Position numbers and translations under genes: made by a program. The notes beneath the pieces are model-generated. The model had not been told where the DNA came from and searched no databases. It saw only the letters and a program-made list of their open reading frames with translations. This document shows positions 29,959-64,000 of a stretch of DNA of 64,000 bases, one piece after another (position 1 is the first letter of the stretch; each line of letters opens with the position of its first letter). Source of the stretch: Candidatus Altimarinota bacterium (GTDB taxonomy: Bacteria > Patescibacteriota > Gracilibacteria > UBA1369); contig OY782391.1 in assembly GCA_963677745.1 (NCBI GenBank), forward strand, positions 1,248,001 through 1,312,000. Reading direction: 5' to 3'.

Positions 29959-32601
29959 ATGGAAAATACCAATCCCAACAACACGGCTGCAACACAGGGT
30001 TCTGCTCCCACTCCCGGACAGGCTATTCCGATGCCGGCTCCCAGCCAGACACCTGCACCCGCCCCAACTCCAGTACCTGCCCCGACTCCTGCTCCTGCTA
30101 CTGCTCCCGCCACTCCGGCCGCCGTACCGGTGGCTCCAGTGGTTCAGCCAGCTCCAGTCGCCCCGGCTGCGCAACCAGCCGCTCCAGCCGCAACTACAAC
30201 TCCAGCTCCCACCACTACTGTATCCCAGCCGGTTCCCGTTGTTCAACCCGCCGCGCCCGTTTCCCAGCCGGTTCAAAACGTCCCGACAGTTGCTCAGCCA
30301 GCCGTACAACCATCCGTACAGCCATCCATACAACAGGTGGCTCCCCAACAGGTCAGGATGCAACAACCCACAGTCATGCCGCAGGGGATTCCTGCCGGCC
30401 AGCCAATGCAAAATCAGCAGTCGTTTTATCAGAACCGTCCGAACCCTCAACAGATGCAACAGATACCTCTGCAGGGACAGCCGCAGCAGCCGGGTCAACC
30501 TGTAGCAGGCCAGCCTGGACAACCGGGTCGTCCCGTGCCCAGACAACTGGCCGGCCAACCCGGCGGACCCAACCCCAAGAAACTTTTGCTGGGATGCCTG
30601 GGATTTGTAGGCTTTTCCATAGTATTATTTATAATCTTTGTAGTCGCTTATGTCAGCCAGACCACGGCTGCCGGTGAAAATGCTTTGGCCTCGTCGCTGG
30701 GCGTAAATCCCGCGGAATTTACCAACACTTTGATTCTGCTGACCAACCTGATTTTCGGAGCGGTAACGATGATTGTCTTCTTTGTGGCGGTATTCGGACT
30801 GTTCAGAGGGGCGATGGCTCCCAAGACCGATAAACCGGCCAGATCCAAAGGATTCAAACAGGCGGGGATTTCCGGTGCGATTTTACTGTTGGTAATTTTT
30901 ATCTGGGTGATAGTTTTCATTTACCTTAACGGCAAAAAGATCGATATCCCTCAAAACCAGCAGCAAACAGTCGGCTTCACCACGGAACCCGAGACCACTA
31001 CCCGTCTGACCGCCCCGATTGATATTAAATTTGATGCTTCCAAACTGGTAGTTCCGAAAACCATTGAGCTGACTTTCTATCAGTGGGATTTCGGTGACGG
31101 GTCGGCTTCGACTGCACCGATTGTGACCCATACTTACCGTGAAGTGGGACAATATCCCGTCAAACTTACGGTCAGCGGCATCAACAAGAATAACAATGAA
31201 ACGGTTACCGAAACTTACGACAAACTGGTTACGGTAATTGATGTAAAAATCAATGCTGATTTTACTTACACGCCGGAAACGGGACCCGCTCCGCTCAAAG
31301 TTTCTTTTGACGCATCCGGATCAAGTTCCCCGGCCGGAGAAATCACCACCTATGCCTGGGATTTCAAAGGACAGAATAACTTCGCTGATGCCGATGGCCA
31401 AACGGCTGAATATACTTTCAATGGATCGGGAGATTATGACGTGAAGTTGAGAGTGACCGACAATACCGGCAAGGACGCCATTGTCACCAAAACAATTACG
31501 GTCGGAGGTCCCGATACTCCGGTTGCTGTTATTGATATTCCCACAACTGACGGAAAATATTATGTCGGTAAACAAATGACTTTTCTCGGTGAAAAATCAA
31601 CCTCTCCAAGTGGAGCAGTCACCAAATATGAATGGGACTTCGGTGATGAAACCCCCAAGGCCAATACCCGCACGGCCACTCATACTTATAAATCCGGCGG
31701 GCTATATGAGGTGACCTTAAAAGTCACCGATGAAGCCGGAAAATCTGGAATCGCCGCACAAAAAATTAACGTTGGCATGGAGGAACAGCCTCCGGTAGCC
31801 GTAATTTCCACCGATCCACCGCTTGGCAAAAACGAGAAATCGCTCAGCGGACAGGCCCCGTTCGAAGTGGCTTTTGATGCCGGACAATCCACGGATCCCA
31901 ATGAAAATCTGGTTGAATTTAAATGGGACTTTGATGGAGACGGCAAGATAGACGCCAATGGCGATGCGGTTTCCTATATTTTCAAAATACCCGGTTCCTA
32001 CAACACCAATCTTACAGCGGTCGATTCGGCCGGACTGGAATCAAGCAGCACACTGGTCATCAAGGTCGCCGCCCAGGATCTGACTGCCCGTCTGACCGCC
32101 GACAAACTGGAAGGTACACAGCCACTGGCCGTAACTTTCGATGCCTCCAGTTCCAGCTATCCTGACGGACAGATTACCAGTTATGAATGGGATTTTGGCG
32201 ACGGTTCACCCAAAATGATCGGTGCCTCCCAGGTCAGCTACAAATATTCGGCGATTGGAACCTTTAATGCCAGCGTAGTGGCCAAGGCTTCCGACGGCAA
32301 GACGGACAAAGCGGAAATTGTCATCAACGTGCGCCCTGTCTCGCTGCAATCCTGTTTCACCCCTTCAGCCGAGGAAGGCCCCGCCCCCTTGACCATTGAA
32401 CTCGATCCGCGCTGCTCACAGGGCGCCGTGGCCAAGTACCTTTGGGATTTTGGTGACGGAGAAACCTCACGCACCAGAAAACCGACTCACACCTTTGCCA
32501 AACCCGGATCGTATCAGGTAAGCTTGGAAGTGACTGATAACCAGAATGTTATCAGCACCTTTTCCAAAAACATCCTGGTTACCGGTGAGGTCCAACCGTA
32601 A
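29959..32601 (+). CDS. membrane protein: P/A/Q-rich N-terminus, 3 TMs, about 6 PKD domains
   Basis: Low-complexity first ~205 aa; three hydrophobic segments; repeated G.APL.V.FDAS.S...Y.WDFGDG. Confidence 0.9.
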   Translation: MENTNPNNTAATQGSAPTPGQAIPMPAPSQTPAPAPTPVPAPTPAPATAPATPAAVPVAPVVQPAPVAPAAQPAAPAATTTPAPTTTVSQPVPVVQPAAPVSQPVQNVPTVAQPAVQPSVQPSIQQVAPQQVRMQQPTVMPQGIPAGQPMQNQQSFYQNRPNPQQMQQIPLQGQPQQPGQPVAGQPGQPGRPVPRQLAGQPGGPNPKKLLLGCLGFVGFSIVLFIIFVVAYVSQTTAAGENALASSLGVNPAEFTNTLILLTNLIFGAVTMIVFFVAVFGLFRGAMAPKTDKPARSKGFKQAGISGAILLLVIFIWVIVFIYLNGKKIDIPQNQQQTVGFTTEPETTTRLTAPIDIKFDASKLVVPKTIELTFYQWDFGDGSASTAPIVTHTYREVGQYPVKLTVSGINKNNNETVTETYDKLVTVIDVKINADFTYTPETGPAPLKVSFDASGSSSPAGEITTYAWDFKGQNNFADADGQTAEYTFNGSGDYDVKLRVTDNTGKDAIVTKTITVGGPDTPVAVIDIPTTDGKYYVGKQMTFLGEKSTSPSGAVTKYEWDFGDETPKANTRTATHTYKSGGLYEVTLKVTDEAGKSGIAAQKINVGMEEQPPVAVISTDPPLGKNEKSLSGQAPFEVAFDAGQSTDPNENLVEFKWDFDGDGKIDANGDAVSYIFKIPGSYNTNLTAVDSAGLESSSTLVIKVAAQDLTARLTADKLEGTQPLAVTFDASSSSYPDGQITSYEWDFGDGSPKMIGASQVSYKYSAIGTFNASVVAKASDGKTDKAEIVINVRPVSLQSCFTPSAEEGPAPLTIELDPRCSQGAVAKYLWDFGDGETSRTRKPTHTFAKPGSYQVSLEVTDNQNVISTFSKNILVTGEVQP

Positions 32602-33869: not shown

Positions 33870-34831
33870 TGACGCACCAGGCAGAACCTCTATCGCAGAG
33901 CTTCAAGGAGGAGGAGAACTTGACAAGCTGGACAGATGGAAAGATACCCCTTGCCAAAGGTGCAAGGACCAAGCGTCCCAACCCCAACTTCGAACAGAGG
34001 AAAGAACAGGAGGAGCTACGAGAACTGGTACTGCTGCAGGGCGGAAATCCCGGAGCAGTGACCCGTCTGCCTCCTTCCCGTCGAGGTTCCAGGGGAGGCG
34101 GGAGAAGGCTTAGTCGCCAGGAAAGCCTGGCTGCGGAGCACGAGCGCGAGCTCAAGGAATGTCTCCAGAAAGGAGTGGCAGAGGTCTATCACCTCGAGGA
34201 CTACCGGCAGGCAATTCCGGGACAACAGGGCGAACAATCAAAAACCCCAACGGTTGCAGATGTACGGCAGCCGATGGAGAGCCCTGCGGTTTCCGCGGAA
34301 GTGCGCCCCGTCCAGGTGGAAGACCCGGATCCATTCTATTGGAGCAGACCGGAGTCCTACTCACCGGAGGCGATCGAACAGAGAAGAAGGGAAGACGAGG
34401 CCAAAAGGCTGGGTGATGCCGAATGCAGGGCGGCCCGCGCAGAGATGGAAGCTGCCGTAAACCGCGTTTGGCAGAAAACACTCAGTCTCTATCGAAGCGC
34501 CTCAGGGGTCAAACAGCGACAACGCCAGTCGACCGCCGACAACGATCCAACCCAATCCGATGCGGAAGGTACGGATTGCTGTCAGGCTCCCGATTGCGTC
34601 AGTCACCTTCAGCTCAAGCCGGAAGAAACCATGCCGGTAGAGCCGCCCGGACCCCGCATGGCCATCGGCTCAAGTCACAATGTCAGAGCCTCAACGCTCA
34701 AGGCCAGGAAGACCAGGAAAGAAAAGAAAGATGCCGGTAAAGCGGCAGTTCGCCTGGTCAAGGAGGCCAAGCAGCAGCTGAAGGACGCTCGACAGGAACA
34801 GAGGCTCGTCCGGGCCAATCGCCAGAAGTAA
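33869..34831 (+). CDS. high-GC, charged/disordered hypothetical protein (start uncertain; TTG 33920 after GGAGGAGG is possible)
   Basis: 320-aa ORF; two hand-counted 60-nt lines are 60-65% GC; bounded by a promoter and a GC-rich hairpin. Confidence 0.55.
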   Translation: MTHQAEPLSQSFKEEENLTSWTDGKIPLAKGARTKRPNPNFEQRKEQEELRELVLLQGGNPGAVTRLPPSRRGSRGGGRRLSRQESLAAEHERELKECLQKGVAEVYHLEDYRQAIPGQQGEQSKTPTVADVRQPMESPAVSAEVRPVQVEDPDPFYWSRPESYSPEAIEQRRREDEAKRLGDAECRAARAEMEAAVNRVWQKTLSLYRSASGVKQRQRQSTADNDPTQSDAEGTDCCQAPDCVSHLQLKPEETMPVEPPGPRMAIGSSHNVRASTLKARKTRKEKKDAGKAAVRLVKEAKQQLKDARQEQRLVRANRQK

Positions 34832-34853
34832 CCATCTTCCAAAGCTTGTTTAT

Positions 34854-34888
34854 CGGGGCCGCGCGCAACGCGCGGCCCCGAAGCTTTT
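34854..34888 (+). terminator. GC-rich hairpin closing the high-GC unit
   Basis: CGGGGCCGCGC-GCAAC-GCGCGGCCCCG followed by AAGCTTTT. Confidence 0.75.
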
Positions 34889-34939
34889 AAATTGGGTGAA
34901 TTTACTGTATAAAAGTTTTGACATAAATACCAAAATACC

Positions 34940-36469
34940 ATGCCAATTCCCTATGTTTTAATGATTCTGGACGGTTGGGGCTACAGTCCTGAAACCGCCA
35001 ACAACGCCATTGCCCAGGCCAAAACACCAAATATCGACGGGCTGATTGAGAAATATCCCCACGGCCTTTTGAAAGCCAGCGGTTTGGACGTGGGGCTGCC
35101 TGAAGGGCTGATGGGTAATTCCGAAGTCGGGCATACCAATATCGGGGCGGGCCGCATCGTTTATCAGGATCTAACCCGCATCGATCAGTCTATCCAGGAT
35201 GGCTCATTCTTCACTAATCCGGTTTTAGGCAAAGCCTTTGAACTGGCTGCCGAAAAGGGGACCAAGTTGCACCTGATCGGGCTGCTTTCGGACGGAGGCG
35301 TTCATTCTCATATTCGTCACCTGGAAGCTCTTTTGCAGCTGGCCCAAAACAGGCAGTTTAAAAAACTGTTCGTTCACCCCGTTTTTGACGGACGCGATAC
35401 CGCCCCCATGATCGGTGAAACTTTTCTTCAGCAGTTATTGGGATATTTTGAAAAGTACGGAGTGGGCCGGCTGGGCACGCTTTCCGGCCGTTTTTATGCC
35501 ATGGACCGGGATACCCGCTGGGAGAGAATTGAAAAAGCTTATAACGCTCTGGTGTTGGGGCAACCGGCATTGGGCTCCGATCCACTCGATTACCTCAAAC
35601 AGTCCCATCAAAAAGGCATCGGTGACGAATTTATTGAACCCGTTTGTGTCAGCCCCGACTCCACCATCGACGAAGGGGATGTAGTAATTTTCTTTAATTA
35701 TCGCTCAGATCGCGCCAGACAGATGACCAGGGCTTTGACCGAAAAAGAATTTACCGGTTTTACCAGACAAAAATGGCCCCTGCTTTCCCAATATGTCTGT
35801 ATGACTGAATATGATCAAAGTTTTCAGTTGCCGGTGGCTTTTCCCTCGCCTGCACTGGTCAACAACCTCGGCGAAGTTATTTCCAAAAACGGACTGAAAC
35901 AGCTGCGAATAGCCGAAACAGAGAAATACGCTCATGTGACGTTTTTTGTAAACGGCGGCCAGGAAATTAAATTTCCCAATGAGGACCGTATTCTGATTGA
36001 TTCGCCCCGCGATATTGCCACCTACGACCAAAAACCGGAGATGAGCGCGGTTCCGGTCACGGAACGGCTTTTGCAGGAACTGGACCGCGACATCTATGAT
36101 TTCGTGATCATCAATTTTGCCAACTGTGACATGGTTGGGCACACGGGAATGATGGACGCCACCATCAAAGCGGTGGAAGTTGTGGATCAATGTGTGGGAA
36201 AAATCGTGGAAAAAGTCTTACAAAAAAAAGGTCTGGTTTTTCTGACAGCCGACCACGGTAATGCCGAAGTGATGATGGATGCGCAGGGCAGACCCCAGAC
36301 CGCTCATACCTCCAATCCTGTGCGCTACATAATTATCTCGGAGCAATATCCCCTGGGCAGTCTGAAAACGCATGACGGTCGGCTGGCTGATGTCATGCCA
36401 ACGCTGCTCACATTGATGAATCTCCCCATTCCGCCAGAGGTGACCGGTCAGAAATTGCTGGATAATTAA
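34940..36469 (+). CDS. gpmI: 2,3-bisphosphoglycerate-independent phosphoglycerate mutase
   Basis: ILDGWG, MGNSEVGH, DGGVHSH, AETEKYAHVTFF, DMVGHTG, TADHGN. Confidence 0.99.
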   Translation: MPIPYVLMILDGWGYSPETANNAIAQAKTPNIDGLIEKYPHGLLKASGLDVGLPEGLMGNSEVGHTNIGAGRIVYQDLTRIDQSIQDGSFFTNPVLGKAFELAAEKGTKLHLIGLLSDGGVHSHIRHLEALLQLAQNRQFKKLFVHPVFDGRDTAPMIGETFLQQLLGYFEKYGVGRLGTLSGRFYAMDRDTRWERIEKAYNALVLGQPALGSDPLDYLKQSHQKGIGDEFIEPVCVSPDSTIDEGDVVIFFNYRSDRARQMTRALTEKEFTGFTRQKWPLLSQYVCMTEYDQSFQLPVAFPSPALVNNLGEVISKNGLKQLRIAETEKYAHVTFFVNGGQEIKFPNEDRILIDSPRDIATYDQKPEMSAVPVTERLLQELDRDIYDFVIINFANCDMVGHTGMMDATIKAVEVVDQCVGKIVEKVLQKKGLVFLTADHGNAEVMMDAQGRPQTAHTSNPVRYIIISEQYPLGSLKTHDGRLADVMPTLLTLMNLPIPPEVTGQKLLDN

Positions 36470-46530: not shown

Positions 46531-49500
46531 CTAATTAGAGTTTTTCAGTTTTGTCTTTATCCAGTTTAAAATAGGGCCTTTAACTTGGCTTATCTCTGCG
46601 ACCAGTTCTTCCATGCCCCGGTTGTTGATAAATTCCTGGATTTCCTGCAGCAGATAGGGATTGTTAAGAATATCCATAAAACCCTGCAGGGCGGCATCCT
46701 CAACCGGTTTGTCAGCTGAGAAATTTAAAATTAAGGCTTTGTGTGACTGTAATTTCTTCTTGAAGTCCTGCCCAAGGTGTTTTTTTGTGAAAAAGAAACC
46801 TAAAACGTCATCATATTGGTTTATCAGGCTGAAATAACCGGTTAGCACAGCTTCTTTGCCGGCAAATCTGGCCTCCAGATAGGCAATCAGAGCATCAGTA
46901 TGACCCTCGCTCAAAGCAAACTTATTCAACATTACGTCACGGGTGGACCTGGTAATTTCTTCCAGGCTCTGTTCCGGTTGTGGCGGTTGTTTGTCTAAAA
47001 CTGGGACATTTCCGGAGATAGCGGCTGAGACCCGGTGTGTAAACAGTTCCCGGTACTCCGATATTTTTTCGGCTTCTTCCTTGCCAAAGTGCAGATTCCG
47101 CTGCGCATCCAGGTAAGCTACCGATCTGACTTCCGGGTCCTTAATATTAGGATGGCCGGCCCCGAAATCAACATTGGCAAAAGTAATTCCCGACGCCGAG
47201 TAAATGCGTTGGGCGGTTTTGTAGGTGTGTCCGTGTACTATCAATGTTATGCCCATGGCATTCAATTCAGCCAATTTTTGACGTATTCTCGGACCATTTT
47301 CGGGATTATTCAGTTTTTGGGCGAAATCTCTGATCAGATCGGGGTTTAAAAACTTTTTACTAAGTTCGGTAAATCTGGGATAGCCGGTTTTCACTTTATC
47401 TTCTAATAATAATTCCTTCAAAGTGCCGGAGAATTCATCATTAATGGTTGCAACGCTGTTAGCAACATTGTCGTCTTTCAATAATTCATCCAGAATTTCC
47501 TCGGTTAATTCGCCATGGAGAACCAGGGTGTTTCCGTCCAGATGCAGCAATTGCATTCTGGAAAATTCTTCAAGGATCCGGAGTCCAACAGGATCGGACT
47601 TCATGTTCGACAGTGCTTCCGGACCTGCTCCGGCAATCTCGTCGATTACGTCAGATGAAAGAGTTCCAAAGGCGATGGCATCCGCCAATAAATCAGCACT
47701 CAAATCTGTCTGTTTGCCAAATTTAGTATATTGTTTGATAAATTCCACCACGCCTCTTCCCTGCTGACCTTTCCATAGGAACATCCAGTTAAAACCTGCG
47801 TTTAGCCTGTCACTGGCGGATCCAAAGGCGGGCCTCTGGGTTAGATAGGACAGAGCGAAGTCTTCATGATTTCCAAAAATTGTAGTTAAACTTCCAAAAC
47901 TTTTTTCAGCCTGTTTTCTCAAATCTGCCAGTCTGGACATGATTTGCAGCCCCTCAGTAACACGGTCTGCCATAATGTCGCCAAGCAATATTAGTTTGCG
48001 GTTCCCGGCAATCCAGGTCCACTGATCATCGGGGCCGATGCTAATAACTTTCAATGACACCAAATTGTTTCTTAAAGCCTCCAGACTGCCGTTTAAATCT
48101 CCAATAAAAAGTATTTCCGGTTCTCCCAGGACTTCTTTGGTCTCTTTTTTTGAAGGGGTGAGCGGCGGGACAGTCGGGGGAGGCGGGGGGGATGCGGGAG
48201 GAGCAGCTGCAATTGCTGTCCGGGGGACTGATTGAAGCTGGGGAGTCGATGTTAATACGGGAGGGGTGGGGGGAGTTGGTGGCGGAGGAGGTGGAGCGCC
48301 GGCAGGTGCAGCAGGAGCTGCTGGAGCCGCTGCTACAGCAGGGGCGGAAGGTGTCGGTCTGACTGCAGGAGCAGCAGGAGGTGGTGGGGGAGTAGGGGAT
48401 CCTGCAGCGGCGGGAGGTGGTGTAAGGGGCGCAGCTGGAGCGGGAGAAACCGTGGCTGCCGGCGCAGGTGCAGACGCAGGAGCAGGTGCTGGTACGGTAA
48501 CGGGACCGGGAGTTTGTAGATTTACCACCAATGGTGGAAGATTCAAACTGGGATTTTCCCAATTGGGAATAAAATGAGTGGGAGCAGCAGCAGGAGCTGG
48601 AGTTGAAGGCGTTAGAGCTGGTGCTACGGGTGCAGGAGCAGGCGAGGGCGTTCCAGCCATAAATGTTCCGAACGGTAACTGGTTTCTAGGAGTGGCCGGT
48701 CGATTGGAGGCTGGGGTTATGGCTGGCTGTGTCACTCCCGTGGGAACATTCTGGGGAGCGGTTGTGCCGGCAGCCGGGGCCGGTGGCTGTCCTTGGTTGG
48801 GACCAACTGCAGGATTCTGAATGGCAGGTGCAGGCGCCGGATGTCTGGAACGGCTCAAAACGGCCATTTCACGCTGAACTGCCGCCAAATTATTGGACGC
48901 CATCTGTAGAGCAGGATCGTTTTCCGGAAGAGTGACCAGTATGCCCAGTTCTCTATCCAGAATCTCCACCAGTCCCCGGATACCGTAATTGGCCTCGAAT
49001 TCGGCAACTCTCCTTTTCAAATCCTGGAATCTTTCATAATCACTGGTGGTTTGTCTGACATAGGCAGCCCTGCTTTCGGCTGCCACCTGAGGCAGATTTA
49101 CCTGCCACTGTCTGATCATCGTTACCTCATCGCCAAATTCGTGCCAGAATAACATTTCCTTTTCTGCGGGCGATCTGCGGGCCAGGTTAGCCTGTCGTTG
49201 ATAAATTTCAGCCATCGCCCGTTCCTGGGCGGCTTTTTGAGCCTGTTGTTGCTGCAACATCTGGTCGAATACAGAGATTTTGCCGGTGGAATGTGCTCCA
49301 TACCTTGCCATCAAATTTTGCAGATAGGCCAGTCGAGAATTTAGTCTGGTGTATCTCTTATATAATTCTGAAAGTTGTATATTGTTTGGATTGAACGCAG
49401 TCTGTGCATTCTGATTGTCTTCGATGGGTTCAATGTTTAAATCTATGCCCAGTACATCAACCTTAATTCTTTTTTCCAGCTCCATAATGTTCTGCTCCAG

Positions 49501-57632: not shown

Positions 57633-58751
57633 TCAAAGCAGCTCTTTCAGCAGTTTTTCGTGTTCAAAAAAGTTGTAAGTGCTTCGTAGTTTTTGGCTTT
57701 CCAGCTGGTTCCGTAGCGAAACATAATTAGTCTGGGTCTTTAAAAAAGACTTTTCCAGGGCAGTCAGATTGAAACTTTCATAATCCAGACAATATTCGCC
57801 CAAATTAATTGTCTGCAAAAAGGATTTGACCTTCTGGCTGTAGGAAAGTGCTATAAATGGAGTCACTGCAAGAATCGAAAAAATAATCGAATGAAGTCGC
57901 ATTCCAATCACCAATTCACTTCTGGAAATAATTTCCAAAACCTGTGAAAAATCCTGAACAGTTTTTAAGGTCATAGCTTCGGGGTTTACCAGTCTGTCGG
58001 CAACTTCGCGGTAACTGACCCGGTCATCGTCCAGGTCGGTTTGAAAAGGGATAAAAACTGTTTTCAAACGGTGTTTTTCCCATAAATAATCAATCATTCC
58101 GGCTACCTGTCCAGAAATTTCTTTTGAATTGCCGTTGATCCAGGGGCGCAAACTCAAAACAACCTGTTTTTGACGGGTGATGGATTTCTCCTGGTCATAA
58201 CCTATGCCGAAGGCGGGATCTGCCATTAGATGGATATTCTTTACACCCAGTGATTTTAGTAACAGCTCTGATTGTGAATCCCTGACCGTTACAAGCAAAG
58301 CCCGCTTAAACACAGCTGCGGTTAGTCTTCTGGCCAATTTGCTTTTAAGAGGACCGACGCTTTGGCTGATGCAAATCAATTTTTTATTGAAAATTCTGAA
58401 CCATATATATTGAACAAACCAGATCCAGACTGCACGGGGTTTTTCGTCAGTAAAAAGACCCCCGCCGCCCAATAAAACGATATCTGCCGCCGCCATCCGG
58501 GCGATGGTTTTCCATCCGGAGGTAGTAAACCAGAAACGAAAAAATGATCTGACGCCGGCCGGGAAATGAAGAACTGCCTGAACTCGAAAATCTGCGGCTG
58601 TCTGAGCCGGCTTGGCAGACATCACTGTAATATCTGAATGTGGCCAGGTTGATTTGATCAGATGTATCAGACCTCCCAAAATCGCATCGTCTCCCAGATT
58701 GGATGCTCCATAGTTACCGCAAACCACTATTTGTTTTTTGTCTGCCGCCAT
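57633..58751 (-). CDS. csaB: polysaccharide pyruvyl transferase CsaB family
   Basis: GNYGASNLGDDAIL, GGGGLF, VRD..S, ADPAF, GMRLHS, YSQKV. Confidence 0.88.
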   Translation of the reverse strand: MAADKKQIVVCGNYGASNLGDDAILGGLIHLIKSTWPHSDITVMSAKPAQTAADFRVQAVLHFPAGVRSFFRFWFTTSGWKTIARMAAADIVLLGGGGLFTDEKPRAVWIWFVQYIWFRIFNKKLICISQSVGPLKSKLARRLTAAVFKRALLVTVRDSQSELLLKSLGVKNIHLMADPAFGIGYDQEKSITRQKQVVLSLRPWINGNSKEISGQVAGMIDYLWEKHRLKTVFIPFQTDLDDDRVSYREVADRLVNPEAMTLKTVQDFSQVLEIISRSELVIGMRLHSIIFSILAVTPFIALSYSQKVKSFLQTINLGEYCLDYESFNLTALEKSFLKTQTNYVSLRNQLESQKLRSTYNFFEHEKLLKELL

Positions 58752-58823
58752 TGTCGGTGAAATTTGTAATGACTCAACTTTATCTGAATTTAACGAGATG
58801 ATTAAGCTATATTATAAAAAACA

Positions 58824-58914
58824 TTGACAAAAGAGTAAAAAAATAGTTTAATTCAATCTTGCTTAAAATTTCCGGAACGGTTGCGGCAAGATTTTGCTCC
58901 TTGAAATAAAGGCA
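58824..58914 (+). promoter_or_regulatory. promoter + 5' hairpin + boxA-like element of high-GC unit 1
   Basis: TTGACA-17-TTTAAT; AATCTTGC/GCAAGATT stem; TGCTCCTTGAAA; ATAAAGGCA. Confidence 0.7.
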
Positions 58915-58920
58915 CAAAGT

Positions 58921-59225
58921 CCGTACAGCACCTAAAAAGAGGCTAATTGCTCGACCAATGCTGTCTCTGCTTTTTAATCTGTCCCAAGTGGTCAGGGAAA
59001 AAGAGAGGGGTAACCTGGGAAAGCTGTAGCTTCCTTTAGGTGCTGTACGGCAATGGAAACAAAAGTCTGATCCCGACACATCGGTCGGGCAGACTGGCGG
59101 ATCTGGCGCTATTTCCAACCTTTCAAGAAGAAGGCAGCGCAGGTCCGCGTAAGGATTCTGACCGGCTCCGCATGCTGCGGGGCCAGTCTCACTGGTTACG
59201 CCGACCCAATGTGGGCGGCGCATGC
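58921..59225 (+). ncRNA. candidate highly structured 5' leader RNA
   Basis: Perfect 16-bp stem 58921-58936/59035-59050 enclosing several small hairpins, then four consecutive hairpins up to the SD. Confidence 0.55.
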
Positions 59226-59239
59226 GAGGAGAAAACGAC

Positions 59240-60490
59240 ATGAAGCAGAGCATTCTAACCAACCTCGCGGTCCTCGTGTGTACTGCCGTCCTGGTAGCGC
59301 TCACGGGGTCTGCGGCTGCTCAGGAGGGGCTCACGCCCGCCTGGCGGTACCACGCATCAACCGATCTCGGCCTGAGCCACTGCGAGTCCGCCTTCTTCGG
59401 AGACGGCAAGGCAATGGTCAACACCGCTCAGATCGCGAAGTCGACCAACGGGGTAACGATCTCTGGTGAAACGGGTAAGACCGTTCGCATCAGGTTCGTC
59501 TGTGAGCGCGCCCAGGAAAAGGGCGCTCGCAGCGAGCTCTTGAGGATCGGCCCCGAAGGTACGTACAACGCGAACCCCGGCGGCGCCGGTATGTCGGTCG
59601 GCTTCGACAAACCCACTGATGATCCCAACAAGACAGCCCTCCACAAGGCGCTGGCGAAGGGACGGGAGTGGGTGTTCACGGTCGGCGCACAGCCCCAGAC
59701 CATCGTGCTGACCTGGAGTGGTGAGTTGGGGAGCGACAAGTTGAGCGTAACTGTTCAACCGTTCGCACCTCCTCCCACCGTTCCCCAGGTGCAGGAAATG
59801 ATCGCTCCGGTCGAGCAGAAGGCGGATGAAGCGCAGACGACTGCCAACGACGCCTACAGCCGGGCAGCCCACGACAATCTCGAGAAGTACCGCTTCATCG
59901 CCGTCACGCTCGGCTACCAGCTGGGATTGAACACGCTCGCTCGAGACGGCGGCAACGCGGACATGGGGGCAAATCTGAACATCGACTACAGCTTCGGACC
60001 GGCAGGCGCCTTCAAGGGGCTCACCGGAATGGTAGCGATGCTCAACTTCGTCCAGAAGCCGGTCATGGAGGCTCCCAATGCGACCGGCTACAACAACTGG
60101 ATCGACTCGCAGACGCTCTACGTCGGCCCGAAGATCGGGTTCGACTACATGCCGGCCAAGTGGTTCGATCTCAGGGTGTTTGCTTCGCTGGGCGCGTTCA
60201 TCAGCTTCGACGGGTCGGTGCCGCTGACCCAGCTTCCCGACGGGAGACTCTTCACGTCGGAGGCACAAACGAACACGGCGCTCGGCTGGATGCTCATGGC
60301 ACAGCCGGGCTTCGTGATCGGCAACTTCCTCATTCAGCCCCAGATCGGCATCGGTGGCACGATGACCAAGGTGCAGACCGAACTGGGCCCGGACTTCGTC
60401 TGCTCGGCGCACGAACCCAACTGCGCCGAGCGCAGAGACGGGTTCGTGTTCAGGGTGCATGGCGGCCTGAACGCGGGAGTGATCTTCTAG
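59240..60490 (+). CDS. high-GC secreted protein with a C-terminal outer-membrane beta-barrel-like domain
   Basis: SD GAGGAG; signal peptide ending AAA/Q; alternating beta-strand pattern; ends GGLNAGVIF (terminal Phe). Confidence 0.75.
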   Translation: MKQSILTNLAVLVCTAVLVALTGSAAAQEGLTPAWRYHASTDLGLSHCESAFFGDGKAMVNTAQIAKSTNGVTISGETGKTVRIRFVCERAQEKGARSELLRIGPEGTYNANPGGAGMSVGFDKPTDDPNKTALHKALAKGREWVFTVGAQPQTIVLTWSGELGSDKLSVTVQPFAPPPTVPQVQEMIAPVEQKADEAQTTANDAYSRAAHDNLEKYRFIAVTLGYQLGLNTLARDGGNADMGANLNIDYSFGPAGAFKGLTGMVAMLNFVQKPVMEAPNATGYNNWIDSQTLYVGPKIGFDYMPAKWFDLRVFASLGAFISFDGSVPLTQLPDGRLFTSEAQTNTALGWMLMAQPGFVIGNFLIQPQIGIGGTMTKVQTELGPDFVCSAHEPNCAERRDGFVFRVHGGLNAGVIF

Positions 60491-60497
60491 GCCAGTA

Positions 60498-60650
60498 CCG
60501 GAGGCCGGCAGCGAAAGTAGCAGCGTCAACACGCTCGCACTTCCGCTTCCGCACGGCCGAACGCAGCTTATTAGTAGCTGCCGGCCTCCGGGAATAACAA
60601 GTGATTCGGCCCGCTCGTAGTAGGGCCAACGAAAGCCCCTACGGGCACTC
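60498..60650 (+). other. structured intergenic RNA element
   Basis: Perfect 15-bp stem 60498-60512/60577-60591 plus a further hairpin before the SD. Confidence 0.55.
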
Positions 60651-60661
60651 ATGGAGGAAAC

Positions 60662-62221
60662 ATGCTTCGAAGAAAAGGCGGGCCGGCCTTGTGGCTGGCC
60701 CAGGTAGTGACGAACCTGAGACGACCGCTGACAACGCCTCTGGGCCTCAGCATCTCTCTCACCATCGCAGCGCCGGCCGCCCTCGCGGGCTTGACCGGCT
60801 GCGAAAACAATCCGAGTCCGGCCGCGTGCTTGAACAGCGGCGACCCGTTCTGCGACCAAGAGCTGGACAACAACGGCAACGGCGGAACGGGCAACTCGGG
60901 GGCCGGCGGCAACACCAACGTGGCCTGTGCCGACAACCCCAACTACGGGAAGGACTGCCAACTCCCCGGGGGCGGCGTTGGCCACTGGGTCTGCGCCGGC
61001 AACGGCATCGACCTCGTCTGCGCCGGAAGCGGCACAGGCGGCAGCGGTGGTGGCGCAGGCGGCAACACGGCCGGCAACGGCGGGTCTGGTGGTGGCGAGT
61101 ATAACTGCGCCACGGACCCGAACAACGGCGATCCGTGCATCGCGGCTGATGGCACCAACGGCCACTGGGGTTGCAACGGGACGGGCTCTGCCCTGTTCTG
61201 TTACTCAGATGGCGGTGCCGGAGGCTCTGGCGGGACGGGCGGAGGCGGGCAGTACAACTGCGCCGACGACCCGCAGCTTGGCACCCCCTGTACGACCAGC
61301 GATGGGCATCAGGGCGCCAAGGTCTGCAACGTCTCCGGCACGGGGCTGGTCTGCCAGTGCACGGTCAACTGCAACGGAACGGGCGGCTCGGGCGGCGGCG
61401 GAACGGGCGGTAGCGGCGGTGGGGAGACCTACAACTGCTTGACCGATCCCGATCTCGGCGACATCTGCGTGATGGGCGTCGGGATCTGCAGCCGCACGGG
61501 CATGTATGTCTGCAACGCGGCCGGCGATGGCCTGCGCTGCAGCACCAATGCGGGTTCGCCCAACCCGGTCGGAGAGGTCTGCGCCAACGGCCTCGACGAT
61601 AACTGTGATGGAGCCAAGGACGAACAGCCCTGCGTCAACGGTGGCGGGGGCGGCTCCGGCGGCACGGGCGGCGGTGGTGGATCGGGAGGCAGCGGAGGAG
61701 CACTCAGCTGCACGGACGCCAGCTCGATGCAGGTGATGGCGGTGGGCGCAAGTTCGCTGCACATCCTGCTGATGGGCCAGGCAGTCTCCAATTCCAATCC
61801 GTGGATCAAGACGCTGACCAACAACCAGCTCTTCACCGCGTCTTCGGAAGGCGGGCTGTCTCTCTCCACCACGGCTGGCTCCTTCAACTACTTCGAGCCC
61901 AACGTCGGGGGCGGAGGTGATCCAATGCCGATGGTAGACACGCTCTACTGCCGGCAGATCGGCATCGATCCTCCCGTCCCGGCGAGTTGCAATGCGACGG
62001 TGATCGGCGATCGGCACAGCACGGAGTACATGGCGTCGCTGCGCATCGCCTGGCAGTGCTGGGACGACACCAGCACCTGTCCGATCGAGCTGATCGGACA
62101 TGTCCCGGGCGATCTGTTCGCTCTGCGTGGCAAGCCTGCCCCCGGCACTCCCCTGAGCCTCCCCGACTACGGCTACGAGGAGTTCGGCCTCGGTCAGGTC
62201 CCCCCGCTCTGCGCGCCGTAG
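60662..62221 (+). CDS. high-GC Cys/Gly-rich lipoprotein with a MopE-like putative metal-binding motif (myxobacterial type)
   Basis: SD GGAGG; lipobox LTGC; four Cys-rich repeats separated by GGSGG linkers; EVCANGLDDNCDG. Confidence 0.8.
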   Translation: MLRRKGGPALWLAQVVTNLRRPLTTPLGLSISLTIAAPAALAGLTGCENNPSPAACLNSGDPFCDQELDNNGNGGTGNSGAGGNTNVACADNPNYGKDCQLPGGGVGHWVCAGNGIDLVCAGSGTGGSGGGAGGNTAGNGGSGGGEYNCATDPNNGDPCIAADGTNGHWGCNGTGSALFCYSDGGAGGSGGTGGGGQYNCADDPQLGTPCTTSDGHQGAKVCNVSGTGLVCQCTVNCNGTGGSGGGGTGGSGGGETYNCLTDPDLGDICVMGVGICSRTGMYVCNAAGDGLRCSTNAGSPNPVGEVCANGLDDNCDGAKDEQPCVNGGGGGSGGTGGGGGSGGSGGALSCTDASSMQVMAVGASSLHILLMGQAVSNSNPWIKTLTNNQLFTASSEGGLSLSTTAGSFNYFEPNVGGGGDPMPMVDTLYCRQIGIDPPVPASCNATVIGDRHSTEYMASLRIAWQCWDDTSTCPIELIGHVPGDLFALRGKPAPGTPLSLPDYGYEEFGLGQVPPLCAP

Positions 62222-62390
62222 CAGAGCACAATCGGAGCTTGAGCCCATCGCCGGGTTCGCTCCTACTTCACTTCCTAAACGTGGTGCACGCGGCCGCGAC
62301 CTGCAAAGGTTCGCGGCCAAGCACTTTCGCCTCGACTGGTAGTCTGGGTCTTCCCTCATGGAGGACGCCGGAACTCGTCGTGGCTTAACC

Positions 62391-62432
62391 AAAGGCCCCG
62401 CCCATTGCGAAAGCGATGTGGCGGGGCCTTTT
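62391..62432 (+). terminator. intrinsic terminator of high-GC unit 1
   Basis: AAAGGCCCCGCC CATTGC-GAAA-GCGATG T GGCGGGGCCTTTT; GC content falls abruptly afterwards. Confidence 0.9.
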
Positions 62433-62464
62433 CAAATCTATTTAAAAAATCTCTCACAAAAGAC

Positions 62465-62562
62465 TTTACAAAACAATTATAATATGTTAAAACATGATCT
62501 TGCTTTGAATCTAATAAATTAGGTTCCTGGCAGAATCTTTGAAAACTCATTGGATAAAGGCA
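62465..62562 (+). promoter_or_regulatory. promoter + 5' hairpin + boxA-like element of high-GC unit 2
   Basis: TTTACA-17-(TG)TAAAAC; ATCTTGCT hairpin; TCTTTGAAAACT; ATAAAGGCA. Confidence 0.7.
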
Positions 62563-62770
62563 TCGGGATAACCGAATTGTTTCTAACAGAAAACAGGAGC
62601 TACGCATCTAGAAAATCAGCAACGACCTGCGCTTAGAAACAGCCCGGTTATCCCGATCATATCGGAAAAATCTTACCGGCGTCGCATCAGATGCCGGCGT
62701 CAGTGTCAGTAATAGTAGTCAACGTCCGTCTCAAATTTGGTCGCGCCTGAAAGCCGCGACTCACCAGTTA
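62562..62770 (+). ncRNA. candidate structured 5' leader RNA, unit 2
   Basis: 13-bp stem 62562-62574/62645-62657 plus 9-bp stem 62578-62586/62633-62641; further hairpins before SD AGGAGG. Confidence 0.55.
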
Positions 62771-62786
62771 CCAGGAGGAAACAGTC

Positions 62787-63527
62787 ATGAAGAAGAATAC
62801 ATGGATGGTGGTTGCGATTCTCGCCATGGCCGCTCTCACTTTCGCGAGTGGATGCGGCGACGGGGATTCGGCAACGTTCCCCAACCCCGACTACTGCCCG
62901 CCCGGCGAAACCTGCGAAGATGCAGGCGGCGGTGGCAGCGCGGGCGGCAACGTCCTCAACCCCGGCAGCGGTGGCAACGATCAGTCTCCGGGCACCTGCG
63001 AGAGCGTACCCGACACCGCCGACTTCCGCAGCTTCAAAGGCTGCATGACGGGCGTGGATCTGTCGGTGACCTGGCGGACGGGCGACCACAAGGAATTCCA
63101 CCTTGCTGGCAAGCGGTACCCGGAAACCGGCGTGGAGCAGGGTGAGATCGTCTACTTGAAGAGCACCCCCGACGATTGCGGCCCCGTGACATTCGTTGCT
63201 GTCAGCAGCAGCGGGTCGGTCGAGTTCGCCTTCCCTGAGACGGTGGACTGGTTCGTGGTTGACACGAGCATGGCCAGCATCATCTGGATGAAGTTGCACA
63301 ACGGTGCAGCTCCCAGTGACGCAGACATGCAGTCAGCCGAGTTCGGCAGCCTGGCGATCGACATCTTCGAGTGTGTGGAGTTGAACTCCAACTGCTCCCT
63401 GAAGTCGACCCTGCCGGGCGGCTGGCCGACCAGCGACGGCGACGAGATCGTGTTCGAAGAGGGCGCCGGTCTCAACGTCGAGGGCAGTGAGTGCGGCAAT
63501 CTGATTGTCGTCGCCCGAACCCGCTAA
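62787..63527 (+). CDS. high-GC lipoprotein (myxobacterial style)
   Basis: SD AGGAGG; lipobox FASGC; Gly-rich linker; Cys-containing acidic domain. Confidence 0.8.
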   Translation: MKKNTWMVVAILAMAALTFASGCGDGDSATFPNPDYCPPGETCEDAGGGGSAGGNVLNPGSGGNDQSPGTCESVPDTADFRSFKGCMTGVDLSVTWRTGDHKEFHLAGKRYPETGVEQGEIVYLKSTPDDCGPVTFVAVSSSGSVEFAFPETVDWFVVDTSMASIIWMKLHNGAAPSDADMQSAEFGSLAIDIFECVELNSNCSLKSTLPGGWPTSDGDEIVFEEGAGLNVEGSECGNLIVVARTR

Positions 63528-63590
63528 GCCTTACAGGCGAAGCGGGGACGGGTCCTGTCCTCCTCCGCAGAGCGCGCCCCCGCTCAGCCG

Positions 63591-63655
63591 CCGCACACCC
63601 CTCCACTCAGGCAACTGAAAAGGCCTGGGTGGAGGGGGAATGCGGATTTTCCTTT
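63591..63655. terminator. terminator of high-GC unit 2
   Basis: CCCCTCCACTCAGGC...GCCTGGGTGGAGGGG stem extended by CCGCA/TGCGG, then a T-rich tail. Confidence 0.8.
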
Positions 63656-63709
63656 CATCCTTTATCCAATGAGTTTCTCCTTCCAAATTTAAATCCCAAT
63701 CAACCTCTT

Positions 63710-64000
63710 TCAGGTTTCTTCCCGTTGAGTCAGCTTGAGATTGTAAATTTCTTCATCAGTATATTCACCTTTTTCAGGCTGTCTCGTATTCTGGCTATTG
63801 TTAATATTTGTCACAATAAGCGGCTTCTGACGCTCGGAAAGTAGTGAACTTAAAATTTGTTCGCGCTTTAGCAGGTTCAACAGATAGCCCCCGTATCCGC
63901 TTTTCAATGTTCTTTCCGCCAGCAGCCGTAACTGATTGGCATCAATATATTCCATTTTATAGGCCACCTCCTCAATACAGCCGATTTTAATATCCTGTCT
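63710..64000 (-). CDS. rfbA: glucose-1-phosphate thymidylyltransferase, C-terminal part (runs off the window)
   Basis: RQDIKIGCIEEVAYKMEYIDANQL...KSGYGGYLL matches the RmlA/RfbA C-terminus. Confidence 0.88.
   Translation of the reverse strand, partial: RQDIKIGCIEEVAYKMEYIDANQLRLLAERTLKSGYGGYLLNLLKREQILSSLLSERQKPLIVTNINNSQNTRQPEKGEYTDEEIYNLKLTQREET

Follow-up and report, generated by a model that had tools for sequence, protein, structure and literature searches.

Why do three adjacent genes of a Candidate Phyla Radiation (CPR) bacterium depart so far from the base composition of their own genome? The genes, called W1, W2 and W3 here, lie between a csaB-like and an rfbA-like gene near the end of a 64,000-nt stretch of DNA (the window, whose numbering is used below) from the closed genome of a Candidatus Altimarinota bacterium (1,335,835 bp, 47.4% GC, 97.9% complete). 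They are predicted to form two transcription units, unit 1 with W1 and W2 and unit 2 with W3, each read from its own AT-rich promoter (Table 1). The initial annotation of this DNA had described them as foreign-style, high-GC genes behind native promoters and a shared leader resembling the boxA element of rRNA operons. The promoters, the motif ATCTTGCT 3 nt past each -10 element (58856 and 62497), the hairpins, the boxA-like elements, the Shine-Dalgarno (SD) sequences, the GC contrast and both flanking genes were all confirmed where that annotation had placed them, and the observation was found to extend to further units in the genome. The explanation we prefer, at a probability of about 0.5 for the whole of it, is a family-specific class of hyper-structured, SD-dependent mRNAs that is maintained by selection and encodes envelope or host-interface proteins. 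The W locus would then hold three surface-protein genes inherited vertically within one Peregrinibacteria/Peribacteria family of the CPR, and would have in addition a private boxA-like leader and, on unit 2, an rRNA-like end helix. This explanation is built on observed conservation, synteny, composition, covariation, excess folding and SD contrast.

The W open reading frames (ORFs) had 62-67% GC. Measured in 200-nt windows, GC was 0.59-0.73 inside the ORFs, 0.38-0.50 in csaB and 0.335-0.35 at both promoters (genome 0.474), and the untranslated regions (UTRs) inside the units were also GC-rich. GC at third codon positions (GC3) was 0.82 in the W genes of this genome, for which the ORF map gave a median of 0.53. 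The offset was present in every relative examined, with W genes at 54-70% GC on backgrounds of ~27% to ~52%. W-gene GC3 was 0.83-0.85 in genomes G002 and G001, 0.59-0.74 in G024, 0.58-0.69 in G003, 0.83-0.87 in G014, 0.79 in G017 and 0.76 in G015; for csaB it was 0.45 in G002, 0.37 in G024 and 0.16 in G003. Four more high-GC islands were located in the source genome, holding five more genes (A, B, C, D1 and D2) that all look secreted. The genome-wide class is thus seven units with eight genes. Orthologs of C in relatives were likewise GC-elevated.

Folding was compared with two kinds of shuffled sequence. Against dinucleotide shuffles, the mean z-score was -1.50 for 204 windows in the high-GC units and -0.24 for 215 windows in native genes (Mann-Whitney p 3e-18). 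Against synonymous-codon shuffles, which preserve both the protein and its codon usage, all eight high-GC ORFs were more stable (z -1.8 to -6.1), and 24 native control genes gave a mean z of -1.20, five of them falling below -2. The same shuffles applied to the relatives yielded z-scores of -3.4 to -7.2 for W genes and of -0.16, -1.98 and +0.28 for csaB. The range from -1.8 to -7.2 bears out the claim of the initial annotation that these mRNAs are unusually structured. Native folding energy across genomes was -52 to -65 kcal/mol per 150 nt, at a GC3 of 0.58 as at 0.85, and the excess over shuffles was greatest in the AT-richest genome (G003, z -5.6 to -7.2). Constant energy despite varying GC3 is a prediction of selection for a fixed RNA stability, and the observation points to such selection.

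The locus has been kept in place over considerable divergence. The gene order RNase HII, csaB, W1, W2, W3, rfbA was retained in four relatives, with protein identities of 38-57% for csaB, 35-45% for W1 and 30-46% for W3, and W2 orthologs lay upstream of W3 in relatives. W3 was found in 7 of the 41 genomes of a relatives search (6 of 24 from the same family, 0 of 16 from other families), and a W3 profile recovered orthologs in 8 of 36 family genomes. Of the 22 genomes sampled in the family, 9 had W1, and it was absent from all 128 genomes taken from 18 other families in the same order; one or other of W1 and W3 was present in 8-11 family genomes. A W1 profile gave 20 matches among 1.84 billion representative proteins, all W1-like in length. 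In a database of 5.8 billion proteins, W1 had two matches and the C-terminal part of W2 five, the query itself counted in each.

The strongest rival is ancient or repeated horizontal gene transfer (HGT) from a high-GC diderm, a member of the Myxococcota or a host, with foreign composition, SD sequences and outer-membrane traits retained or refreshed by replacement. A GC3 near 0.8 and strong SD sequences in an SD-poor genome fit such an origin, as do a modelled outer-membrane-type barrel in W1, though no Omp85/BamA was found, and the 25 PF11617 repeats of protein B together with a weak one in W2. Protein-atlas look-alikes of W1 were commonest in Myxococcota and Acidobacteriota, at a score of only 0.91 that makes them a lead. 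Cys-rich secreted proteins of Ca. Peribacter riflensis have also been described as weakly similar to Myxococcus repeat proteins (PMC4736985); GC islands are not mentioned in the passages searched of that paper. Against transfer stand the synteny and orthology across deep divergence. Identity of just 38-57% between flanking proteins implies that synonymous sites are saturated and should be at equilibrium, from which we infer that the GC offset needs a gene-specific force and not slow amelioration. The same genes are GC-elevated on backgrounds of very different GC, folding energy is conserved while GC3 varies, and the database counts above reveal neither homologues outside the family nor a donor lineage for the W proteins. 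Among the usual marks of a genomic island the locus has the atypical composition; it is shared with relatives, donor homologues are lacking, and neither mobility genes nor direct repeats at the flanks turned up. The W locus is not a recent transfer, which agrees with the initial annotation in setting plain recent HGT aside. Its further idea of a foreign origin with tuning to Myxococcota is not supported, the triad being syntenic and orthologous within the family and nearly confined to it, and we regard older or repeated transfer as improbable.

Less probable again is GC-biased gene conversion at a recombination hot spot, by which surface loci exchanged among strains would drift GC-rich with no function at the RNA level. 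It would account for raised GC reaching into the UTRs, and the conserved flanks and leaders could act as recombination anchors. There are also signs of strain variation: in one sequencing run (X5), unit 2 (62422-63640) fell apart into short contigs, ~9-15 deep as against ~24 in the flanks, and one contig diverged after 35 nt, a pattern that hints at strain-level W3 variants in that sample. However, the ~200-nt AT-rich promoter/leader segment holds 34-35% GC in all genomes although it lies between GC-rich blocks, and gene conversion does not predict an excess of folding over synonymous shuffles, still less one that grows at lower GC3.

Both units follow one leader plan: a 5' hairpin opened by ATCTTGCT, the boxA-like sequence CYTTGAAA, and a long hairpin. 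The motif ATAAAGGCA falls at 58906 in unit 1 and at 62554 in unit 2. Conservation of the native-style promoters in 7 and 6 genomes and of the structured leaders beneath them supported what had been proposed initially. For unit 1, RNAalifold paired columns 9-17 with 43-51 in the 5' hairpin, double changes being present, and over the whole leader 29 of 63 predicted pairs carried a double change (5 genomes). The corresponding figure for unit 2 was 13 of 38 pairs (5 genomes). Two covariance models were built, R1 from the unit 1 leader and R2 from the module shared by units 1 and 2. Of 36 family genomes, 7 had a match to R1, one each, and no further loci were found; R2 matches at E<=0.022 were confined to units 1 and 2 in the three genomes searched. 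Single motifs were common in the 1,335,835 bp (ATCTTGCT 28 times, ATAAAGGCA 18 times), and the composite of ATCTTGCT followed by ATAAAGG occurred twice, both times at this locus. The exact motif of the initial annotation, written as a gapped pattern, matched unit 2 only, unit 1 being missed because TTGAAA overlaps ATAAAGGCA there. A repeated genome-wide leader family was dropped as a candidate, R1 and R2 having recovered only the units of this locus. The leader is therefore not a genome-wide signature, an outcome that the initial annotation, taken strictly, had itself named as counting against its proposal. The other high-GC units do have analogous, non-homologous features. An Rfam scan of the window found two tRNAs at gathering score, and between 58700 and 63800 it gave chance-level matches alone (E 0.76-4.8).

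The leader elements of the two units are similar to the Firmicute form of boxA. When TCTTTGAAAAC, CCTTGAAAT and the GCTCTTTGAAC of unit C were set against GYTCTTTAANA (PMC5725501), a gamma-proteobacterial consensus that may not be that of this phylum, unit C differed at 2 of 11 positions. In unit C, GCTCTTTGAAC lies near the predicted 5' end, with small changes in two relatives (GCTCTTTGAGT and GTTCTTTGACA). The genome's own 16S leader, inspected by eye, reads ATCTTGC, a hairpin and CTTTTTGAAC, with equivalents in two relatives; in these three genomes the hairpin is followed by CTTTTTGAAC or CTTTGAAAT. No such module was seen in the 23S leader. NusB is encoded (PF01029, 110 bits, C1:1178033-1178404), as is RNase III (PF14622, 140.9 bits), and nusB lies directly upstream of the RNase III gene on the same strand, across a gap of ~140 nt (C1:1178033-1178930). 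Rho was not found, TIGR00767 giving only sub-threshold matches (45.7 and 18.7 bits, the cut-off being 509.45) that we take to be ATPase subunits; a Rho_N-like match was noted in a 127-aa frame. The boxA likeness noted initially is a resemblance in sequence only, and R2 and the missing Rho speak against a closer tie. The link of CYTTGAAA to the rRNA element is unproven, and recruitment of Nus factors by it is tentative. Two side observations concern RNA genes. At C1:276777-277100, TTGACA-17-TATAAT precedes TTCTTTGA and a stretch lacking a long ORF that also holds CCTTGAAAAC; the site is possibly a gene for a non-coding RNA. There is no linkage between the 16S and 23S genes (C1:136623-146100): two tRNAs and a terminator-like hairpin come after 16S, a separate TTGACT/TATAAT promoter serves 23S-5S ~4.7 kb away, and each rRNA has its own leader-trailer complement.

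In unit 2 the two ends of the message are complementary. In all six genomes compared, the arms (Table 1) matched perfectly over 15-19 nt; across these, 11 core pairs were 98.5% paired, three of them with double changes, and the covariation score was reached by 0 of 500 shuffles. End pairing was measured throughout as the longest perfect complement between the 330 nt upstream and the 330 nt downstream of a gene. It was 18 nt for unit 2, 14 for D2 and 13 for A, and the maximum among 250 control genes was 12 (0 of 250 reached 13). In unit C, the SD region pairs with the 3' UTR in three genomes.

Perfect inverted repeats at unit 2, A and D2 might instead act on DNA, as inversion sites for phase variation or as the scars or ends of mobile cassettes. 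The perfection of the unit 2 arms is in keeping with this, as is the fact that every change in them runs from one Watson-Crick pair to another with no G-U. Phase-variable surface lipoproteins are common, and the contigs of run X5 break near the arms. However, arm sequences differ between units, making a single recombinase unlikely; the neighbours are csaB and rfbA, with no recombinase; W3 faces the same way with respect to its promoter in all six genomes compared; and no joints appeared in contigs of four runs, though contigs drop rare variants. We consider action at the DNA level quite unlikely.

The high-GC genes also stand apart in translation initiation, and the SD claim of the initial annotation held. 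Of 848 native ORFs starting with ATG, 8 had a 5-mer SD core, fewer than the 22 counted in control windows, and tig, rplS, rnhB and csaB have AU-rich starts lacking an SD. W1, W2, W3 and A carry AGGAG or GGAGG, and B has a strong SD at a GTG start. The 3' end of the 16S rRNA still reads CCTCCT. An SD permits initiation in structured 5' UTRs (PMC3155529), and we infer that a folded, GC-rich message with no open AU-rich start region would depend on one, as the structural explanation has it.

All three W products look like surface proteins. The AlphaFold2 (AF2) model of W1 (pLDDT 71.7 from an 8-sequence alignment, moderate confidence) comprises a signal peptide, a beta-sandwich, a helix and a C-terminal eight-stranded barrel of outer-membrane type. 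Foldseek matched the barrel to Ail, OmpX, OmpA-TM and NspA (E 2.6e-5 to 1e-3, TMt 0.55-0.64), so the C-terminal half models as an OmpX/Ail-like barrel, in line with the barrel signal first noted, and the C-terminal residue was F or L in all W1 orthologs. No Pfam or NCBIfam family matched W1. Omp85/BamA (PF01103) had no match in the closed genome, the same search being positive in seven control genomes. The lipobox-like LTGC of W2 and ASGC of W3 were read by eye, the Cys being invariant in seven W3 orthologs, and W2 gave a weak PF11617 match. The W3 model (AF2, pLDDT 68.5) had no PDB match at E<=0.001 and no usable match in the protein atlas. A literature search in a limited collection, supplements excluded, found no paper that deals, for these bacteria, with barrels, the use of SD sequences or classes of GC-rich genes.

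A barrel made by a cell that lacks BamA could insert only spontaneously or in the outer membrane of a partner, and this, with the predicted stability of the mRNAs, lends some colour to the initial suggestion of a high-GC diderm host to which the messages or proteins would be tuned and into which they would be exported. Nothing in the data points to export of RNA. A GC3 that ranges from 0.58 to 0.87 among relatives is unlike a match to the codon usage of one host, no host is known, and the UTRs share the composition of the coding regions. Host tuning or export is accordingly rated very unlikely.

Assembly chimerism at the sharp GC steps can be dismissed: the same architecture recurs in independent assemblies of at least seven related genomes, and contigs from three of four runs (two studies; 68.8, 55.5 and 9.3 kb; source runs of the assembly possibly among them) run unbroken from 58000 to 64000, showing 0-1 differences and no joints.

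How selection on such messages might operate can be put as a sequence of steps. The transcripts of the seven units would be held GC-rich and structured by selection on the RNA itself, and would not be leftovers of transfer. The 5' hairpin and the overall folding would shield the mRNA from decay. Single-stranded CYTTGAAA might be where an RNA-binding factor is recruited, NusB/S10 being a candidate by analogy with rRNA leaders. The messages of unit 2 and several other units could be closed through pairing between their 5' and 3' ends, in the manner of an rRNA leader-trailer helix. Initiation in the rest of the genome is SD-independent and AU-rich; folded mRNAs could not make use of it and would therefore need a strong SD. 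A broader formulation is that one CPR family runs a separate expression regime for a few envelope or host-interface genes, whose messages are selected to be rRNA-like, with constant folding over ~27-52% genomic GC, a boxA-like leader, paired ends and SD-dependent initiation; this we regard as speculative.

Several points weigh against the structural explanation. The folding test may be inflated by complementarity of Gly (GGC) and Ala (GCC) codons in low-complexity stretches, and a mild folding excess is present in native genes too (mean z -1.2). End complements of units 1, B and D1 (8, 10 and 8 nt) were not above chance, and the unit 2 arms have no G-U pair in six genomes, which suits a repeat acting on DNA no less than an RNA helix. 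Units 1 and 2 alone have the shared leader module, units A, B, C, D1 and D2 having different leaders, which loosens any claim of one system. R2 did not match the 16S leader at E<=1 in three genomes, and likeness to rRNA leaders is by eye only. With no Rho found, the classical target of boxA complexes is removed; terminator-like sites in the units showed no enrichment (4 against an expected 5.0), and a need for antitermination is not evident. The starts, ends, processing and stability of the transcripts are all predictions from sequence.

Some features of the other high-GC units and of the window were recorded alongside. Protein B (C1:511747-515760, locus L036; 1,303-1,337 aa, secreted, 64% GC) consists almost wholly of PF11617 (MopE-type) Cys motifs, in 25 stretches (E 1e-141). 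The C-terminus of protein C (C1:850296-852698, locus L037) has a Cys-containing motif, a hydrophobic helix and RRRRQ, a tail that we take to be reminiscent of MYXO-CTERM-type sorting tails; no NCBIfam model matched it. Orthologs of protein C lie at the ends of four contigs in G003. D1 and D2 (C1:913600-915900, locus L038) are tandem paralogous lipoprotein genes, 36% identical, each with its own TTGACA promoter and a near-identical 3' UTR module, and the 5'/3' complement differs between the copies. The bins 30001-31000, 34001-35000 and 48001-49000 of the window, all inside large ORFs, had 0.57-0.58 GC.

The features of the locus are collected in Table 1. The promoters of units 1 and 2 are predicted from sequence reading and conservation across genomes; a strict consensus promoter scan listed neither, its rule accepting only -10 elements with A in second and T in sixth place. 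The unit 1 terminator-like hairpin went unlisted by the terminator scan, its loop exceeding the length allowed by the scan rule. A divergent promoter-like site for csaB (TTTACT-17-TATAAT, minus strand, 58839->58811, 10/12 match) overlaps the unit 1 promoter region. Just 3' of the W2 stop, a covarying hairpin was seen at 62222-62290 (GGAGCTTGAGCC...GGGTTCGCTCC), with equivalents in four relatives by eye.

Table 1. Features of the W locus in window coordinates; promoters, hairpins and terminator-like sites are predicted.
Feature	Position	Strand	Details
csaB-like polysaccharide pyruvyl transferase	57633-58751	minus	PF04230 (PS_pyruv_trans), E 3.7e-45; native composition; left flank
Unit 1 promoter	TTGACA 58824-58829; TTTAAT 58847-58852	plus	17-nt spacer; sequence; kept in 7 genomes
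Unit 1 5'-proximal hairpin, ATCTTGC...GCAAGAT	58856-58892	plus	ATCTTGCT at 58856 pairs with GCAAGAT 58886-58892
Unit 1 boxA-like element CCTTGAAATAAAGGCA	58899-58914	plus	conserved part CYTTGAAATAAAGGCA; near-invariant in 5 genomes; common to unit 2
Unit 1 long leader hairpin, ~130 nt	58921-59050	plus	perfect 16-nt arms 58921-58936 / 59035-59050; covariation
W1, secreted protein	59240-60490	plus	AGGAG SD; GC3 0.82
W2, lipoprotein (LTGC)	60662-62221	plus	Gly/Cys-rich repeats, conserved C-terminal domain; GGAGG SD; GC3 0.82
Unit 1 terminator-like GC hairpin GGCCCCGCC...GGCGGGGCC, then TTTT	62394-62433	plus	sequence; equivalent hairpins in relatives
Unit 2 promoter	TTTACA 62465-62470; TAAAAC 62488-62493	plus	17-nt spacer; TG-extended -10; sequence; kept in 6 genomes
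Unit 2 5' hairpin, then boxA-like TCTTTGAAAAC at 62536	62497-62546	plus	covariation; model R2
Unit 2 5' arm of long-range complement	62543-62560	plus	perfect 18-nt complement of 63659-63676
Unit 2 long leader hairpin	62562-62657	plus	stem 62562-62586 with 62633-62657; covariation
W3, lipoprotein (ASGC)	62787-63527	plus	conserved Cys residues; AGGAGG SD; GC3 0.82
Unit 2 GC-rich hairpin 3' of W3	63598-63637	plus	equivalent hairpins in relatives
Unit 2 3' arm of long-range complement, then T-rich tail	63659-63676	plus	pairs with 62543-62560
rfbA-like nucleotidyl transferase	63710-64000, runs past window end	minus	PF00483 (NTP_transferase), E 5e-69; right flank

Atypical GC is routinely read as HGT; here syntenic orthologs stay GC-rich on varied backgrounds and folding energy is constant. 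If the structural explanation is true, the locus would be a clear natural case in which selection for the stability of whole messages shapes base composition, and long-lived, nuclease-resistant mRNAs would suit tiny, ribosome-poor episymbionts. An outer-membrane-type barrel from a cell with no BamA could, on the same assumption, insert into the outer membrane of a partner. Leaders, end pairing, the SD class and that barrel offer handles on host-interface expression in ultra-small CPR cells, and composition-based binning and HGT callers will mis-flag such loci.

Several known systems invite comparison. The rRNA leader (boxB-boxA-boxC) with its Nus complex also places a short U-rich element behind a promoter-proximal hairpin; CYTTGAAA and GCTCTTTGAAC resemble GYTCTTTAANA (PMC5725501), and NusB is present. 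Here, in contrast, protein-coding surface genes are driven, R2 misses the 16S leader and no Rho was found. Coding genes under boxA control, such as suhB of E. coli and Salmonella, likewise have boxA in an mRNA 5' UTR (PMC5725501), but theirs lies <=50 nt from the start codon and represses translation, whereas the present element lies ~250-340 nt upstream, at the very 5' end. Translation of the Bacteroidetes type shares the genome-wide dearth of SD sequences and the AU-rich starts (PMC3155529); it differs in that a small gene class of the same genome here keeps strong SDs. As in the rRNA leader-trailer helix or RNase III stalk (PMC10250234), a covarying long-range complement brackets the RNA, and RNase III is encoded beside nusB. 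The bracketed RNA is an mRNA here, and its arms are short (13-19 nt) and perfect. In B. subtilis hbs and S. aureus icaR, 5'/3' UTR pairing, and in ompA a stabilising 5' hairpin, reportedly control decay or translation; end pairing or a 5' stem is common to these and to the present units, the SD region of unit C pairing with its 3' UTR. To our knowledge none of the three shows a rise in GC over the whole message. Atypical surface-antigen loci and genomic islands, of which O-antigen loci are an example, also combine a composition far from that of the genome with surface products. Unlike them, the present locus keeps its deviation in syntenic orthologs across genera of differing GC, coupled to an excess of RNA folding.

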